A stretch of DNA of 64,000 nucleotides from an uncultured delta proteobacterium (GCA_963834535.1 CAWICC010000005.1:263743-327742), one strand, 5' to 3'; shown: positions 57,043 through 62,908, counted from the stretch's first letter. The notes: generated by a model not told the origin, from the sequence alone. Numbers and translations are program-made.

Positions 57043-57420
57043 TTACCAGCGGCCGCCGCCACCACCTCCGCCACGGCGATCGCGTCCACCACCACCGCCC
57101 CCACCTCCGCCGCGAGGACCACCATAGCCGCCACCACCGCCGCCGCCGCGAGGACCACCACCACCGCCGCCTTCGCGGGGACGCGCCTCGTTGACGCGGA
57201 TGTTGCGGCCCTTGAGTTCGGTTTCGTTGAACTCCTCGATCGCTCGTGCGGCGTCGTTCGAGTCAGCCATCTCGACGAATCCGAAGCCGCGCGACTGTCC
57301 CGAAAACTTGTCGACTACGACCACCGCGCTGTCAACCTTGCCGGCCTGGGAGAATAATCCTTCCAGGTCTTCGTTGGTCACCGAGTAGGCCAAATTGCCT
57401 ACGTACAATTTAGTGGGCAT
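57043..57420 (-). CDS. RRM-type RNA-binding protein with a Gly/Arg-rich tail
   Basis: RNP2 is 'LYVGNL' and RNP1 is 'RGFGFVEM'. The 45-aa tail is almost pure Gly with RGG units. Confidence 0.9.
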   Translation of the reverse strand: MPTKLYVGNLAYSVTNEDLEGLFSQAGKVDSAVVVVDKFSGQSRGFGFVEMADSNDAARAIEEFNETELKGRNIRVNEARPREGGGGGGPRGGGGGGGYGGPRGGGGGGGGGRDRRGGGGGGGRW

Positions 57421-57924: not shown

Positions 57925-59541
57925 TTGACATATGAGACCATGCAGGGTTCACTCGGAGTTGTGTCGAACCCTCCGGTGAGCGAAAAGATCCCACCGTGGT
58001 TGCTATGGCAACGCCTGAACCGGTCGGAAGTCTTCGAGAGCTTTAGCGACGACCAGCGCGACGCGTTTCTGAAAGCTTATGAAAATGAGCCGGGCATGCG
58101 TATGCGCGCCTTCAAAACCGGCGCTACGATTTGCCGCCAGGGCGAGTACGAATTGGACTTGTGTTTTATCCTGAGCGGCGCGGTCAACCTGATAGACCAC
58201 CTGGGCGAAGACGACCAGGCCTTCGTGGTCGCCCTCGAAGCCGGCGACATCTATGGTGAGCTTGGTGCGATCGGTGGCCTGCCGCGTTCGGTGGATATCG
58301 TCGCCCGCACCGATGCGGAAATCTTTTATGTTCCCCGTCACGCGCTCAAATATATCGAAGTCAACAACGGGGCGCGTGAGATCCTCGCCCGGCGCTATCG
58401 CGAACGCGCCGTGCGCCTTATAGCAAGTCACGTCGAGTTGTTCCGCGGCGTCCCGCGAACCTTCGTCGATGAGCTGATTCCGAAATGTGAGATTCTGCGC
58501 TACGAGTTGCGCGGTATTCCATTGGTAACGCAAGGGGAACCTGGTGACGCCCTCTACATCGTGCGCGATGGCTTCGTTCAAGTCGCGCGCGAGGAGCCCG
58601 ACGGCAGCCGTCGCGTACTCGCCTATCTCCGCGCCGGCGAATATTTCGGCGAAATGGCCTTGTTCGAGACCGGGTTGCGCTGGGCCAGCGTATTGACCGC
58701 CGGCAAGTGCGAGCTGATCAAGATCATGCGCGACGACTTTCTCGACTTATGCCGTCAGTATCCGCAGATCGAAGCCTCCGCGCGCAAGGTTATCAAACTG
58801 CGCTTTGAGCAGGAGCGCACCGTTACCCCCGAAATCTCCGAACTACTCGAACGCAGCGGACAACTCGGTGTCATTCAGGCTGACGCGCTGCTGGTGATGG
58901 ACCTTGACCTTTGTATCAAGTGCGACGAATGCGTTAAGGCGTGTGAGTCGCTGCACGGTGAGAGCCGCCTCATCCGCAACGGTATCCAGCTCGGCAAATA
59001 TCTCGTCCCGAGTGCGTGTCGCCATTGTGACGATCCCAAATGCATGAACAGTTGCCCCACCGGAGCAATCAAGCGCCGCCCGGAAGGTGAGATCTATTTC
59101 CAGTACGACATGTGCATCGGCTGCGGCAACTGCGCGATCGCATGCCCTTACGACAACATCGCGATGATCGACACTCCCACCTTCGACCAGGCGCAGGCGC
59201 GCAAGTCGCACGCGATGAACGACGCGACCTTCTTTCGACCCTATCCGCTCGCCGCGCACGATGTCGCTGAGACCGGATTGTGGAAACGGCTGTTTAATCC
59301 GGGCGGCGGGCACGCGCGGCCGCAGGGTCCGACCGGCTCCCCGGAGGCGCACGATTACGAACACATCCCCGCGGCTTTTCCGATCAAGTGCGATTTATGT
59401 GACGGACTGCCGTTCATGGGTTGTGTGCATAACTGCCCCACCGGCGCCGCGATCAGGATCGATCCCGCAAAATTGTTCGCCGAGACTGGCGCGGTCAGTG
59501 CCGGTTCGCGCGTGCGCAAGGCGCGCGGTGGCAGTGATTAG
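57925..59541 (+). CDS. Cytoplasmic protein with two cyclic-nucleotide-binding domains and a four-cluster [4Fe-4S] ferredoxin domain
   Basis: The cNMP-like segments are '...GDIYGELGAIGGLPRSVDIVA' and '...GEYFGEMALFETGLRWASVLTA'. The Cys motifs are CIKCDECVKAC, CRHCDDPKCMNSCP, CIGCGNCAIACP and CDLC..(8)..CVHNCP. There is no signal peptide. The start is TTG 57925 or ATG 57940. Confidence 0.8.
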   Translation: MTYETMQGSLGVVSNPPVSEKIPPWLLWQRLNRSEVFESFSDDQRDAFLKAYENEPGMRMRAFKTGATICRQGEYELDLCFILSGAVNLIDHLGEDDQAFVVALEAGDIYGELGAIGGLPRSVDIVARTDAEIFYVPRHALKYIEVNNGAREILARRYRERAVRLIASHVELFRGVPRTFVDELIPKCEILRYELRGIPLVTQGEPGDALYIVRDGFVQVAREEPDGSRRVLAYLRAGEYFGEMALFETGLRWASVLTAGKCELIKIMRDDFLDLCRQYPQIEASARKVIKLRFEQERTVTPEISELLERSGQLGVIQADALLVMDLDLCIKCDECVKACESLHGESRLIRNGIQLGKYLVPSACRHCDDPKCMNSCPTGAIKRRPEGEIYFQYDMCIGCGNCAIACPYDNIAMIDTPTFDQAQARKSHAMNDATFFRPYPLAAHDVAETGLWKRLFNPGGGHARPQGPTGSPEAHDYEHIPAAFPIKCDLCDGLPFMGCVHNCPTGAAIRIDPAKLFAETGAVSAGSRVRKARGGSD

Positions 59542-59732
59542 AGCGTCGCGGGCAAGACTGGGCGGAGATAGGCGTGCTCGTCGCGGAAATCTCGACAAAC
59601 ATCTTCGATGATGGTTTGGTTCGTCAATCTTCCGCCAGGAGGGCGGCAATGGGAGTGTGGCACTGCGGGGTAACGGTCGCGCTAATTCAGCAGCTCGGCC
59701 TGATCGACCTGGCTTGACCAGATGATACGCGG

Positions 59733-60632
59733 GTGAGAGAGCAGATAGGCGACGCCTCTGACCGGCGTCATACAGCGCCGATCGCGTCGGTGACATTGTG
59801 GGTGGTGATCTGCGGTGCGGTGGTCCTTGCCATACACGCCGCCACCGCCATTATTCCAGCGCGCCTCGGCTCATATCGCACTGGCATCATCACTCTTCTC
59901 ACCTTCCTGCTGGCTGCGATTTACAGCGTTCGCAAGCATACTCTATGGCTCTCCGTGCGATGGCTCCGTCTGGCCTCACGCCTGCCGCGTTCATTTGCTC
60001 GCCGGCTGGTTCTGATGGATCGCCTCGAGACCTGGCGCACCCTCCACATCACGATCGGAATGCTGGCGCTATTGCCGTTCTGGTGGCACGTCGATGCGGG
60101 CCGCGCGACCATCTTGGAACGCGCGCTCGAAAGCACCGTTATCCTCGTCATTCTGAGCGGCTTCTGCGGTGTGTTAATTCACGATTTGCTGCCCCGCGCC
60201 ATGCGCGTTCGGCCCAATCAGGAGGTTCGGCTCGAGGATGTAGAGGCGGCCTACCATCAGCTTTACTTCGAGGCCGAGGAAGCGATCCTTGGACATTCGG
60301 AGGCTTTGGTTAAGGCCTACCTGAAAAACGTCCGGCCGCTGCTGATCGGGGAGCAGCCAGCAGCCCGTTTGGCGTGGGCTACGCTTCGCGGGAGCGATCC
60401 GTCGCCGCGGGCTTGCCGGACGGCGTTGCGTGATGCCACCTCGGTCGGGAGCGACGAACCGATCTACCGCGATCTGGTCGAGGTCGCCGCGCGCAAGGTG
60501 CGGCTGGAACTCAATCAATTTAATCTGCGACTCGGTACCGTCTGGCTCAAATTTCACATCGCGCTCGTCATGATCATGGGTATCGAGATCCTCTTTCATG
60601 TCACTGGCGTGCTTTATTTCGTGGGCTTTTGA
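59733..60632 (+). CDS. Five-TM membrane protein with two H-x13-H helices (putative di-heme cytochrome b)
   Basis: TM3 is 'LH105ITIGMLALLPFWWH119' and TM5 is 'FH275IALVMIMGIEILFH289', each with exactly 13 residues between the His residues. Its stop overlaps the next start (ATGA at 60629-60632). The start codon is uncertain. Confidence 0.6.
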   Translation: MREQIGDASDRRHTAPIASVTLWVVICGAVVLAIHAATAIIPARLGSYRTGIITLLTFLLAAIYSVRKHTLWLSVRWLRLASRLPRSFARRLVLMDRLETWRTLHITIGMLALLPFWWHVDAGRATILERALESTVILVILSGFCGVLIHDLLPRAMRVRPNQEVRLEDVEAAYHQLYFEAEEAILGHSEALVKAYLKNVRPLLIGEQPAARLAWATLRGSDPSPRACRTALRDATSVGSDEPIYRDLVEVAARKVRLELNQFNLRLGTVWLKFHIALVMIMGIEILFHVTGVLYFVGF

Positions 60633-62908
60633 TGCGGCGCAGCGCCTTCATACTGGCCGGCGTCGTGATCGTGCTCGCGGTGTTCGTGCTCGCGCGCCGC
60701 CAGAGCTATCAACCCGGCGAACTGATGGCTGCTCACGATAACCTCCGCGGACAGTGCGCCGATTGTCATCAGCCGTGGCACGGTCCAGCGACTGATCGCT
60801 GCGTTGCCTGCCATGGCGACATCGCCGACGTCAATCCTCATGGCGGCTACGATGTAACCAACGACAGTGGACTGATCGCCGGCCGCACGCTCCACTTCCT
60901 CACCCGCGACAACGAAATCACTTGCCTCAGTTGCCATACCGAACATCGCGGCCGCGTGGTCGATCTGAACACCACGGCGACTTTCAATTGCGCGTGGTGC
61001 CATCAGCATCCCTCGATCCAAGGCGTCGACGAGCACAACGCTCCGATTATGAAGCGCGGCGTTACCGCGCGCACCGCGTTCGTACAGCAGTTCAATCACT
61101 TCGAGCACAAGTTGCTGATCGAATCGCGCTACCCGGCCTATCCCGGCGGGTTCAAGTGCGAATCATGCCACAACCTGCCCCCAACGTCGTCGCAGAATCC
61201 CGATCGGATGAGTTTTCGCTGGTCCGGATGTGCGGGCAGCGGATGTCATCTGGCGCCCCAGGATTCCTTCATGCAGTTGCCGGCCGCGGTCGGGCCGTCG
61301 CCGAAGTTGATTGCGTACACGGCGACGGTTCTTCACATGAACACCGTCTTCGCGCATTCGGCCGGCCATCTCCAGACGCCTTGCGAAACCTGTCACTTTT
61401 CGACGCCGGCCAGCAAGGCTCCCAACGATGCCGCCTCGAAGCAGGTCGAGAATTGTTTCAAATGCCACGCCCATCAGGCGGCCCCGCCTGTTAGCGCGAA
61501 TCCGAGCGTGCGGGCGACTTTGAACTGGATCGGGACGGGAACTGCCTTTGCGGCTGCGCCCATCGCCAGCGGCAGGAGTGTTACCGCCTGCGGTGAATGT
61601 CATCTGTTCCACCTTCACGGACCGTTGATGAAGAACGACTTTGTCGGGACGGCGCCCGAAGCATTGCCCAACGCCAAACCTCATCTGACATGGACCGTCT
61701 TTATGCCAACGATCGACCGCGCGCGCGGCGTCGGTCTCCGCCCAATGCGGATTTCGCCCTGGCTGCTCGGATGGTTCGGCTTGCTCGCCGCCGGCCTCTG
61801 CGGCTTCGGCCTGGTGCGCCTGATGCCATCCAAGGTGGCTGATCGCGAAGTAGTCGCCGGGGTTGCCCCGCAGCGCACCCATGAAATTCCTCTGATCGAC
61901 GACACCTATCAGACCAGCGTGCGCCACCTTTACATCATCGGCGAAGCCTCCGGCACCGCGTCGATCAACCTCGCGATGCGTTCCGGCCGCCAGGTGATTG
62001 AGGCCATAGTCGCCGAATTGAAGCACTCTCGCCCGCCGGTCGACCCAGCCGTGTACGACGTCGTAATCGTCGGCTGCGGTCCCGCCGGCCTCGGCGCCAC
62101 CGCGACGGCGCGAGCCGCCGGGCTCAATTACGTGACGCTGGAAAGAATGACGCCGGCGTCCACGCTGCGCGCCTATCCACGTGCGAAGTTCGTCCAGGCC
62201 ACGCCTATCGACATTGCCGAATACGGATCGTTCTTTTTGGAGGGCGACAACTCCCGCGAGGACCTCATCCATGAGTGGGAGCGGATCATCGCCACCCTGG
62301 GACTCAAGATTAACGATCGCGAGGAAGTCGTTGGCGTATCGCGTGACGACGATATTCTGACAGTCGAGACCGCGCGCGGTAACCGCTACAGAACGCGATC
62401 GGTGGTGCTCGCAATCGGCGTGCGCGGAAATGCCCGTCATCTCAATCTTCCCGGCGAGCAAGCCGGCCGCGTCTTCTATACCCTTATCGAACCCTCCGAA
62501 TTCCAGAATCGAAAGATCCTGGTTGTTGGCGGCGGCAACGCCGGCGCAGAAGTCGCTCAAGCGCTCGCCGCCGCGGCCCTGGGCAACCAGGTTAGCTATT
62601 CTTTCCGCGCCCCGGTGCTGTCCAGCATCACGCGCGAAAATGCCGAGAAAATCAGCGACCTGCAGCGCTCCGGACTGCTTACCCTCTATCCAGGCACGAT
62701 GCTCAAGGAGATCATGCCGGGCCGGGTCGTGCTCGATCCGGCGAACGATACCGGCGTCAAATCGACTTCCCCGCGTGACGCTCCGGAAGGCCCTGTCGAG
62801 ATCGACAACGAGATCATCTTTGCGATGATCGGCGCCGAACTGCCGACCGCGTTTCTCCGGCAGATCGGCGTTAAGCTGGTGAGCAAGGGCCGTCTTGGCT
62901 TGAGCTGA
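60629..62908 (+). CDS. Fusion protein: N-anchor, periplasmic multiheme cytochrome c, TM helix and cytoplasmic FAD/NAD(P)-dependent oxidoreductase
   Basis: There are eight CxxCH motifs (CADCH, CVACH, CLSCH, CAWCH, CESCH, CETCH, CFKCH, CGECH) and one CAGSGCH. The TM helix is 'WLLGWFGLLAAGLCGFGLV'. The dinucleotide folds are 'VVIVGCGPAGLGA' and 'ILVVGGGNAGAEVA'. Confidence 0.8.
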   Translation: MMRRSAFILAGVVIVLAVFVLARRQSYQPGELMAAHDNLRGQCADCHQPWHGPATDRCVACHGDIADVNPHGGYDVTNDSGLIAGRTLHFLTRDNEITCLSCHTEHRGRVVDLNTTATFNCAWCHQHPSIQGVDEHNAPIMKRGVTARTAFVQQFNHFEHKLLIESRYPAYPGGFKCESCHNLPPTSSQNPDRMSFRWSGCAGSGCHLAPQDSFMQLPAAVGPSPKLIAYTATVLHMNTVFAHSAGHLQTPCETCHFSTPASKAPNDAASKQVENCFKCHAHQAAPPVSANPSVRATLNWIGTGTAFAAAPIASGRSVTACGECHLFHLHGPLMKNDFVGTAPEALPNAKPHLTWTVFMPTIDRARGVGLRPMRISPWLLGWFGLLAAGLCGFGLVRLMPSKVADREVVAGVAPQRTHEIPLIDDTYQTSVRHLYIIGEASGTASINLAMRSGRQVIEAIVAELKHSRPPVDPAVYDVVIVGCGPAGLGATATARAAGLNYVTLERMTPASTLRAYPRAKFVQATPIDIAEYGSFFLEGDNSREDLIHEWERIIATLGLKINDREEVVGVSRDDDILTVETARGNRYRTRSVVLAIGVRGNARHLNLPGEQAGRVFYTLIEPSEFQNRKILVVGGGNAGAEVAQALAAAALGNQVSYSFRAPVLSSITRENAEKISDLQRSGLLTLYPGTMLKEIMPGRVVLDPANDTGVKSTSPRDAPEGPVEIDNEIIFAMIGAELPTAFLRQIGVKLVSKGRLGLS

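Follow-up and report, generated by a model that had tools for sequence, protein, structure and literature searches.

To our knowledge, the known outward electron routes of bacteria (Mtr/CymA, CbcL/ImcH and the Gram-positive flavin-based pathway) start at the quinone pool, and enzymes of the NOX type pass electrons directly to O2 or iron. Two stacked b hemes are held, in cytochrome b, NarI and NOX, by two pairs of histidines, 13 residues apart, on two helices. The DNA considered here, a ‘window’ of 64,000 nucleotides from an uncultured, soil-dwelling delta proteobacterium of the Binataceae (GCA_963834535.1 CAWICC010000005.1:263743-327742; positions are counted from the first letter of the whole stretch), carries on its plus strand a cassette of three genes, which encode an iron-sulfur protein with cyclic-nucleotide-binding (cNMP) domains (gene 1, 57925-59541), a membrane protein (gene 2, 59733-60632) and a fusion of a nine-heme cytochrome c with a flavoprotein (gene 3, 60629-62908). 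We regard it as fairly probable that this cassette is a NAD(P)H-driven, nucleotide-gated transmembrane electron conduit, operating as one complex built from three translationally coupled genes.

The nearest parallels in overall logic are NOX, FRE, SpNOX and the Fre-MsrQ-MsrP system of E. coli, with which the cassette would share cytoplasmic NAD(P)H, a flavin, two stacked b hemes on histidine pairs of two helices and an acceptor outside; the likeness to NOX extends to relatives of about 750 residues, in which a dehydrogenase and a histidine-bearing transmembrane (TM) domain are joined in one polypeptide. Unlike NOX and Fre-MsrQ, the cassette employs a permuted two-Rossmann dehydrogenase resembling YpdA and thioredoxin reductase (TrxR) rather than the plant-type FNR fold, interposes a four-cluster ferredoxin, and delivers its output to a nine-heme cytochrome c instead of O2, Fe(III) or MsrP. 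A second parallel is provided by the Tmc, Hmc and Nhc complexes of sulfate reducers, in which, as the cassette would also do, a multiheme cytochrome c in the periplasm is combined with a b-type cytochrome in the membrane and an iron-sulfur protein in the cytoplasm, and by NarH docked on NarI, a four-cluster protein on a di-heme b subunit of five TM helices that the products of genes 1 and 2 resemble as a pair. In contrast to Tmc, Hmc and NarHI, there is no HdrD/CCG-type, NrfD-type or molybdoenzyme subunit among the Pfam hits of the cassette, the cytochrome is covalently joined to a NAD(P)H flavoprotein, cNMP domains are added, and the membrane subunit lies outside known families.

Individual parts invite comparison as well. 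The dehydrogenase shares both dinucleotide motifs and the lack of a CxxC motif with YpdA/Bdr and the TrxR-like ferredoxin-NADP+ reductases (7a76, 7a7b, 2zbw, 6gar, 3ab1), and differs from them in that its last FAD-binding element stands at the N-terminus (a circular permutation), in its membrane tether and in the loss of the YpdA cysteine. In CbcL of Geobacter, hemes are fused to a b-type membrane domain that takes electrons from quinol, and FccA is a soluble protein with a fumarate-reductase flavin domain; set beside them, the fusion is alike in joining a multiheme c domain to another redox module, and unlike in that this module is a NAD(P)H flavoprotein in the cytoplasm, separated from the hemes by a single helix. 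The cassette differs from NOX/FRE, Fre-MsrQ, the Tmc/Hmc-type complexes and NarH-NarI alike in four respects: its dehydrogenase is permuted, its entry and exit modules are covalently linked by way of two tether helices, gating by cyclic nucleotides is proposed for it, and its membrane subunit has no family.

The fusion gene is an open reading frame (ORF) of 759 codons. The TGA of the upstream gene occupies 60630-60632 and the junction reads TTTTGATGCGG, so that translation would start at TTG 60629 or, more likely, at ATG 60632 within the TGATG overlap, an arrangement that commonly signals translational coupling. Two hydrophobic segments (residues 1-27 and about 375-399 by hydropathy) divide the protein. 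The first contains a putative signal-anchor helix, TM1 (residues 5-23, 60641-60697; modelled as a helix over 2-21), which is followed by a nine-heme cytochrome c domain (residues 36-330, 60734-61618); the second, TM2 (residues 375-398, 61751-61822; modelled helix 377-398), includes an invariant W378 and the string WLLGWFGLLAAGLCGFGLV at residues 378-396, and joins the cytochrome to a flavoprotein in which Pfam recognises Pyr_redox_3 (94.7 bits) and Pyr_redox_2 (78.3 bits) over residues 476-755. An earlier sequence-only reading of this DNA had described just this order of N-terminal anchor, CxxCH-rich region, helix and double Rossmann domain, and reading frame, motifs, Pfam and hydropathy all bear it out at the same coordinates; one correction concerns the flavoprotein module, which begins directly after the helix (at about residue 407-419), ahead of its first Rossmann motif.

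A search of 5.8 billion proteins returned 262 homologs of the fusion, the best 120 of which are almost all 730-830 residues long and cover 96-100% of the query; the named ones among the matches listed come from Binataceae metagenome-assembled genomes. Of 151 Binataceae genomes, 51 carry the fused gene; they belong to 12 of 30 genera and include every one of the 13 genomes of the window’s own genus. A single alignment covers both halves in each full-length genomic match, split rows being confined to fragmented contigs, and a few matches contain a single internal stop. The fusion is, then, a real, conserved and old gene with a patchy distribution. Some Binataceae genomes (G368 and G305) hold two diverged full-length copies, those of G368 being 71% and 55% identical to the window protein.

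The cytochrome domain carries eight CxxCH motifs (at residues 43, 58, 99, 121, 177, 252, 276 and 321) and, as its sixth heme site, the CxxxxCH motif CAGSGCH (residues 201-207, 61229-61249), whose cysteines and histidine are invariant; the eight or nine hemes suggested by the sequence-only reading would come to nine. Each of the nine motifs is kept in 98-100% of 121 aligned sequences, and only four ORFs with at least five CxxCH motifs, the fusion included, are present in the 4.2-Mb genome, two facts that argue against chance occurrence. Pfam assigns Cytochrom_c3_2 (class III type) at 33.9 bits against a cut-off of 25, and a comparison of the domain with PDB sequences gave no significant match. 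Eleven further histidines outside the motifs are invariant in the family, so that most of the nine hemes are probably bis-histidine ligated and of an electron-transfer rather than a catalytic type. The AlphaFold model, calculated without hemes, has low confidence in this domain and was used for the flavoprotein and the helices only.

The four-residue spacer of the sixth site had been taken to imply a dedicated heme lyase or unusual ligation, an expectation that found no support. The site reads CxGxGCH in most orthologs, is a plain CxxCH in 10 of the 121 and is lost in some distant relatives; no heme lyase gene was found in the cassette, and the Ccm and PF01578 genes of the genome are all distant from it, an ordinary Ccm system (CcmE, CcmF, CcmC) lying on the same contig at a distance of about 200 kb, and a single additional gene of the PF01578 (CcsA/CcmC) family on another contig. 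CxxxxCH sites also occur in tetraheme cytochromes c3, where they are matured by general systems. A dedicated lyase was accordingly rejected.

The orientation of the fusion follows from where its cofactors are acquired and used. Heme c is attached covalently on the outside of the cytoplasmic membrane, NAD(P)H is found in the cytoplasm, and the protein should therefore have both its N-terminus and its C-terminus inside; the two hydrophobic helices that flank the heme domain, seen in the hydropathy profile and in the AlphaFold model alike, are placed as such a topology requires. Relatives of about 1000 residues, one of which (P0153) aligns with the window fusion over residues 6-677, carry cytoplasmic FHA domains before the first helix and a [4Fe-4S] domain after the second. 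Because the FHA domains precede TM1 in these relatives, TM1 must span the membrane there, and the two flanking modules together make the heme domain a periplasmic loop and the flavoprotein a cytoplasmic domain. Judged by its helices and relatives, the heme domain is lodged between two membrane passes with the flavoprotein in the cytoplasm, and the earlier view that the two redox halves lie on opposite faces of the membrane is upheld.

The flavoprotein has the two-dinucleotide-binding fold of the TrxR-like enzymes, in an altered order. Its FAD and NAD(P)H Rossmann domains (residues 473-755, 62045-62893) contain GxGxxG at 482-487 and GGGxxGxE at 634-641, and both motifs are invariant in 97 sequences of the module; their conservation answers the earlier concern that the FAD and NAD(P) residues might be missing. 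The nearest solved structure by sequence search is YpdA/Bdr (7a76, E 4.4e-17), which also heads the Foldseek list for the modelled domain (E 8.5e-18, probability 1.00), ahead of TrxR-B3, the Thermus TrxR-like protein 2zbw, IruO and TrxR-like ferredoxin-NADP+ reductases. The recurrent module starts at residue 407-419, and its leading piece (residues 419-468, 61883-62032) carries the GD/GE-type FAD motif that normally closes a TrxR-like fold (in the wider module, 99% of sequences conserve G438 and 74% conserve E439). When residues 419-470 were moved to the C-terminus and the sequence was realigned, it matched YpdA 7a76 end to end (6-326 to 6-317) at 73.8 bits, compared with 65.8 before, and the score against S. 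aureus YpdA rose from 55.1 to 66.6 bits; the relocated piece is modelled at a predicted local distance difference test (pLDDT) mostly of about 84-91, with a dip near residues 441-450. From the end-to-end alignment it follows that the domain is a circular permutant of the YpdA/TrxR-like fold, without CxxC.

The label ‘thioredoxin-reductase-like’ in the sequence-only reading thus applies to the fold alone. Beyond residue 324 the protein has just two cysteines, C391 in the TM helix and C483; with no redox-active CxxC and a TIGR01292 score of 54 bits against a cut-off of 343, assignment as a thioredoxin-disulfide reductase was rejected. An arginine that follows the NAD(P)H motif, R660, is conserved in 95% of sequences of the wider module, and NADPH may be the preferred substrate. 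The context, in which Fer4 domains are fused to the flavoprotein module or encoded beside it, would suit a TrxR-like ferredoxin-NADP+ reductase. A loop of the FAD domain (residues 509-541, 62153-62251) is almost invariant (R514, P517, R518, K520, F521, Q523-I527, E531-G533, L537-D540) and is nevertheless modelled at a pLDDT below 50; it is a candidate docking surface for the iron-sulfur protein or the membrane subunit.

Between these two redox halves runs a single helix, and the sequence-only reading had put forward the upstream protein with its H-x13-H spacing as the likely bridge. That protein, the product of gene 2, has 299 residues, about five TM helices and a cytoplasmic helical insert of about 110 residues, as judged from hydrophobic segments and homologs, of which 232 were found. 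Its only invariant histidines, in 44 close and 20 diverse sequences, are H105 and H119 in TM3 (60045-60089) and H275 and H289 in TM5 (60555-60599), each pair separated by 13 residues. The positive-inside rule predicts that both helices lead from the cytoplasm to the outside, which would put H105 and H275 close to the inner face and H119 and H289 close to the outer one. By analogy with the stacked-heme proteins described above, we infer that gene 2 binds two b hemes through its H-x13-H pairs and so could serve as a di-heme wire. The protein is always encoded next to the fusion and a homologous domain is fused to the flavoprotein elsewhere, findings that together with the four invariant histidines strengthen its candidacy as the bridge. 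A database copy of the protein (P0274, 280 residues) begins 19 codons downstream of GTG 59733 (window 59733-59790); the 299-residue form seems right, since relatives that are 86% identical align from residue 1.

The relatives in which these parts are fused were collected in a search of 1.84 billion representative proteins, and the module appears there in several architectures: a TM segment, Fer4 and flavoprotein (about 440 residues); the same with a multi-TM domain appended (about 750 residues); cNMP, Fer4, flavoprotein, a second Fer4 type (Fer4’) and multi-TM domain (about 970 residues); FHA, TM, 7-11 hemes, TM, Fer4 and flavoprotein; flavoprotein, multi-TM domain and two Fer4, with a NapH-like Fer4_5 match; and one protein with 20 hemes after the flavoprotein. 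Heme counts among the relatives are 0, 4, 7-11 or 20. Profile comparison (hhalign) aligns gene 2 with the C-terminal TM domain of the 750-residue class over 218 columns (Prob 97.3, E 2.4e-11) and, more weakly, with the 970-residue class (Prob 74), the four histidines being in register in both; they are in register again in a membrane protein of 220 residues at locus L048 (Prob 88.9). The gene 1 protein matches the 970-residue class in two pieces that flank the flavoprotein, which sits exactly between the third and fourth cysteine groups. The fusion of these parts elsewhere leads to the view that the three window proteins are a split version of single-chain modules, and the lack of an internal wire, which had seemed a topological puzzle, is answered if the helix is a tether and the neighbouring protein the wire. 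The 750-residue class (TM anchor, Fer4, permuted flavoprotein and histidine-bearing TM domain; P0250, P0423) comprises about 7,700 database proteins, with hosts among the Myxococcota (including a cultured Myxococcus, P0423), the Anaeromyxobacteraceae and the Acidithiobacillales, and appears to be an uncharacterised single-chain design of NOX-like kind.

Gene 1, which the earlier two-part view of fusion and bridge had left out, proved to be as constant a member as the other two. Loci of 40 species representatives and three further assemblies were compared; the order of iron-sulfur gene, membrane gene and fusion gene is the same in every complete locus, down to 31-38% fusion identity, and is repeated with overlaps of 4 nucleotides at a locus of the FHA-bearing class. 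Gene 1 was present in every one of 42 loci compared, and no other universally linked gene was seen among the loci compared. The neighbours of the fusion in other genomes, a record of which had been proposed as a check, are thus the same two upstream genes wherever the locus is complete, and the two-part view stands as to the bridge and falls short in omitting an obligatory third protein.

The product of gene 1 is a predicted cytoplasmic protein of 538 residues (neither a Tat nor a Sec signal is visible at its N-terminus) in which two cNMP domains (cNMP_binding, 128.8 bits in two stretches) precede a four-cluster [4Fe-4S] ferredoxin part (residues 323-525, 58891-59499). Fer4_7 scores above its cut-off and Fer4_11 reaches 40.9 bits against 26.2; the cysteines form four groups (residues 330-340, 365-377, 397-407 and 489-504) as in four-cluster proteins of the DmsB/NrfC/NarH type, whose groups follow the pattern C-x2-C-x2-C-x3-C, with an 80-residue linker between groups III and IV. 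Local matches to NCBIfam models of DmsB-, DsrO-, HybA- and NrfC-type subunits all stay below their cut-offs, which places the protein outside the subunit family of any named enzyme. A 22-codon ORF with a good Shine-Dalgarno sequence (59649-59717, plus strand) lies in the 190-nucleotide gap between genes 1 and 2; it was rejected as a member of the cassette, as close relatives have stops in frame and the gap is reduced to 34-37 nucleotides in distant ones.

Taken together, these parts suggest a path along which electrons could cross the membrane. In the cytoplasm, the C-terminal FAD domain of the fusion would oxidise NAD(P)H; the electrons would pass from FAD to the four [4Fe-4S] clusters of the cNMP-binding ferredoxin, from there to the two b-type hemes on the H-x13-H pairs of gene 2, by which they would cross the membrane, and on to the nine mostly bis-histidine c hemes of the periplasmic domain and an acceptor in the periplasm or outside the cell. 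Neither of the fusion’s single helices would conduct; their part would be to hold the entry and exit modules to the b-heme subunit. Electron flow would be gated by the cNMP domains and, in some relatives, by the FHA domains, whose presence suggests a control that makes sense for a system drawing on the NAD(P)H pool. The analysis establishes which domains are present, that fusion and cassette are conserved, that the parts are fused in other lineages, and that the YpdA-like fold is permuted and lacks CxxC; we infer heme b binding, the physical complex, the specificity for NAD(P)H, the outward direction and the acceptor.

The direction of flow is where the scheme meets its strongest rival, in which the periplasmic cytochrome takes electrons from an external or periplasmic donor (or the b-heme subunit takes them from quinol) and the FAD domain reduces NAD(P)+. 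TrxR-like ferredoxin reductases are reversible, the list of parts is symmetric, and no result fixes the direction. Against inward flow, bis-histidine c hemes are normally far more positive than NAD(P)+, the electrons would have to move against the membrane potential, and no ion-pump subunit that could provide the coupling is found in the cassette. Outward flow is favoured by reasoning on the same grounds, because NAD(P)H is the most reducing component, the membrane potential aids outward movement of electrons and no energy-coupling subunit is present; we consider the inward alternative unlikely.

A second possibility, to which we give a distinctly small chance, is that the cassette is a redox sensor, the periplasmic hemes reading the redox state outside and the module of flavoprotein, iron-sulfur protein and cNMP domains turning it into a signal. 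Regulatory domains are certainly there (two cNMP domains here, FHA in relatives), and a histidine kinase is encoded upstream in two loci. A sensor, however, would be expected neither to dispense with a conserved output domain (no kinase, cyclase or DNA-binding domain is conserved in the cassette) nor to need nine hemes, four clusters and two putative b hemes, which far exceed what sensing demands; and a heme content that varies from 0 to 20 among relatives is more in keeping with an exchangeable output wire.

The similarity to YpdA raises the question of whether the flavoprotein might be a thiol or disulfide reductase that uses Cys483, with a separate role for the cytochrome part. The best sequence and fold matches are indeed YpdA/Bdr, and Cys483 is invariant among the Binataceae fusions; yet 67 of the module’s 97 relatives have Ala in its place, which makes a catalytic role for it unlikely, and the cysteine position of the YpdA GGGPCG motif is occupied by Ala486. 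Against TIGR04018 the protein reaches 107.9 bits, where 339.9 would be needed, and membership of YpdA/Bdr was rejected on this score, the missing cysteine and the permuted order of elements. As the module is, moreover, regularly fused to Fer4, which points to one-electron transfer, we think a thiol reductase very improbable.

It is harder still to credit a wholly periplasmic flavocytochrome of the kind found in Shewanella FccA, with the middle hydrophobic stretch buried in the protein. Soluble periplasmic flavocytochromes c do exist, but the domain that follows the TM helix here is a two-Rossmann, Pyr_redox-type domain for NAD(P)H rather than one of fumarate-reductase type, and with no FAD_binding_2 match above cut-off a flavocytochrome c3/FccA assignment was rejected; the helix is hydrophobic, about 22 residues long and conserved, and the cytoplasmic [4Fe-4S] and FHA modules of relatives cannot share a compartment with Sec-exported hemes. 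An artefact of assembly or a frameshift that joined two genes, which the sequence-only reading had named as a danger and for which no support was found, is refuted by 262 full-length homologs from independent assemblies and by single alignments across both halves in dozens of genomes, and deserves practically no credence.

A number of observations weigh against the conduit as we have drawn it. The membrane protein on which the crossing depends has no Pfam or NCBIfam family above cut-off and belongs to no known heme family, and a single-sequence AlphaFold prediction gave no usable model (pLDDT 50). Below threshold, its family touches DUF4405 in 6 of 20 sequences (best 25.7 bits against 26.7) and DUF4079 in 5 of 20, and Ferric_reduct (PF01794) appears only in relatives of gene 2 (E 0.0016-0.0055, below the 28-bit cut-off); alignment by hhalign with real DUF4405 proteins from genomes is confined to the TM3 histidine helix (Prob 22%, 23 columns). 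Across the phylum the fused gene was found in 2 of 301 sampled genomes, both of the window’s own genus and one of them the window genome itself, and within the Binataceae the cassette is patchy, reaching about a third. The sequence was not found in any of the RNA runs searched, the outward direction is a matter of thermodynamic reasoning, no acceptor or outer-membrane partner was seen near the cassette in the window genome, where no dedicated search was made, and the genome’s other multiheme ORFs number just three.

The family question itself can be taken somewhat further. The gene 2 protein of the window has no DUF4405 match, and profiles of gene 2 compared with PDB sequences gave nothing significant. 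Membership of DUF4405 (PF14358) was rejected as a family assignment, the hits being below threshold and the comparison covering one helix. Ferric_reduct was not adopted as an assignment either; the two histidine pairs on two TM helices are there and invariant, the Pfam matches sub-threshold. We regard gene 2 as a separate family that bears a heme-b-like signature. Purified DUF4405 proteins were shown to coordinate heme b with four central histidines (bioRxiv 10.1101/2024.03.13.584918). Unlike DUF4405 systems, the cassette has no apbE or flavinylation context.

The three other multiheme ORFs of the window genome, all on the minus strand, are a protein of eight hemes whose long C-terminal region is rich in alanine and leucine (C5:573087-575531), a six-heme secreted protein of 917 residues (C6:132129-134879) and a short five-heme protein (C4:198362-198886) that may be the pentaheme subunit of an alternative complex III. 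At eight distant loci a secreted multiheme cytochrome c is encoded directly beside the cassette and may be an onward electron carrier; the window genome has no close homolog of these proteins. Five of them are tetraheme proteins of about 220 residues (L031:8529-9182, minus strand, and L032, L033, L037 and L043), and three are eight-heme proteins of about 600 residues (L039:7126-8919, minus; L040:8163-9911, plus; L041:8123-9976, minus), in which two four-heme parts are joined by a long linker rich in Ala, Glu and Lys.

Genes that flank the cassette (an RRM protein, a CoA-transferase and alpha/beta hydrolases) were rejected as members of the system, their synteny being limited to close relatives. 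The small RRM-domain protein (window 57043-57420, minus strand), which has a poly-Gly/Arg tail and is syntenic only in closer relatives, is 90-100% identical across Binataceae loci whose cassette is 53-83% identical.

No description of the cassette architecture was found in the literature searched in full text, an absence there that is not proof, and current database names for the proteins are limited to ‘thioredoxin reductase’ and ‘NAD(P)-binding domain-containing protein’. We advance only tentatively, and with less conviction than the conduit itself, the broader proposal that bacteria possess a large, undescribed class of transmembrane electron exporters driven by NAD(P)H, of which the cassette would be the form with a multiheme output, a class that would be marked by a permuted YpdA-like dehydrogenase, a [4Fe-4S] relay, a new di-heme b domain and gating by cyclic nucleotides or by FHA-mediated phosphorylation signalling, and that in the Binataceae could provide aerobic soil bacteria with a direct, quinone-independent route from NAD(P)H to the periplasm or the extracellular space. 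The flavoprotein module occurs in thousands of unannotated proteins, those of cultured Myxococcus among them, so that one characterisation would assign a function to many, and the Myxococcus strain with the 750-residue relative offers a tractable experimental route. The locus also adds a circular permutation to the family of TrxR folds and a candidate new family to the membrane b-type cytochromes. If the reading is true, a regulated wire from NAD(P)H to a periplasmic multiheme cytochrome would represent a different design from the quinone-based routes, by which a cell could shed reducing power, or feed periplasmic or extracellular reductions, and leave its respiratory chain untouched.

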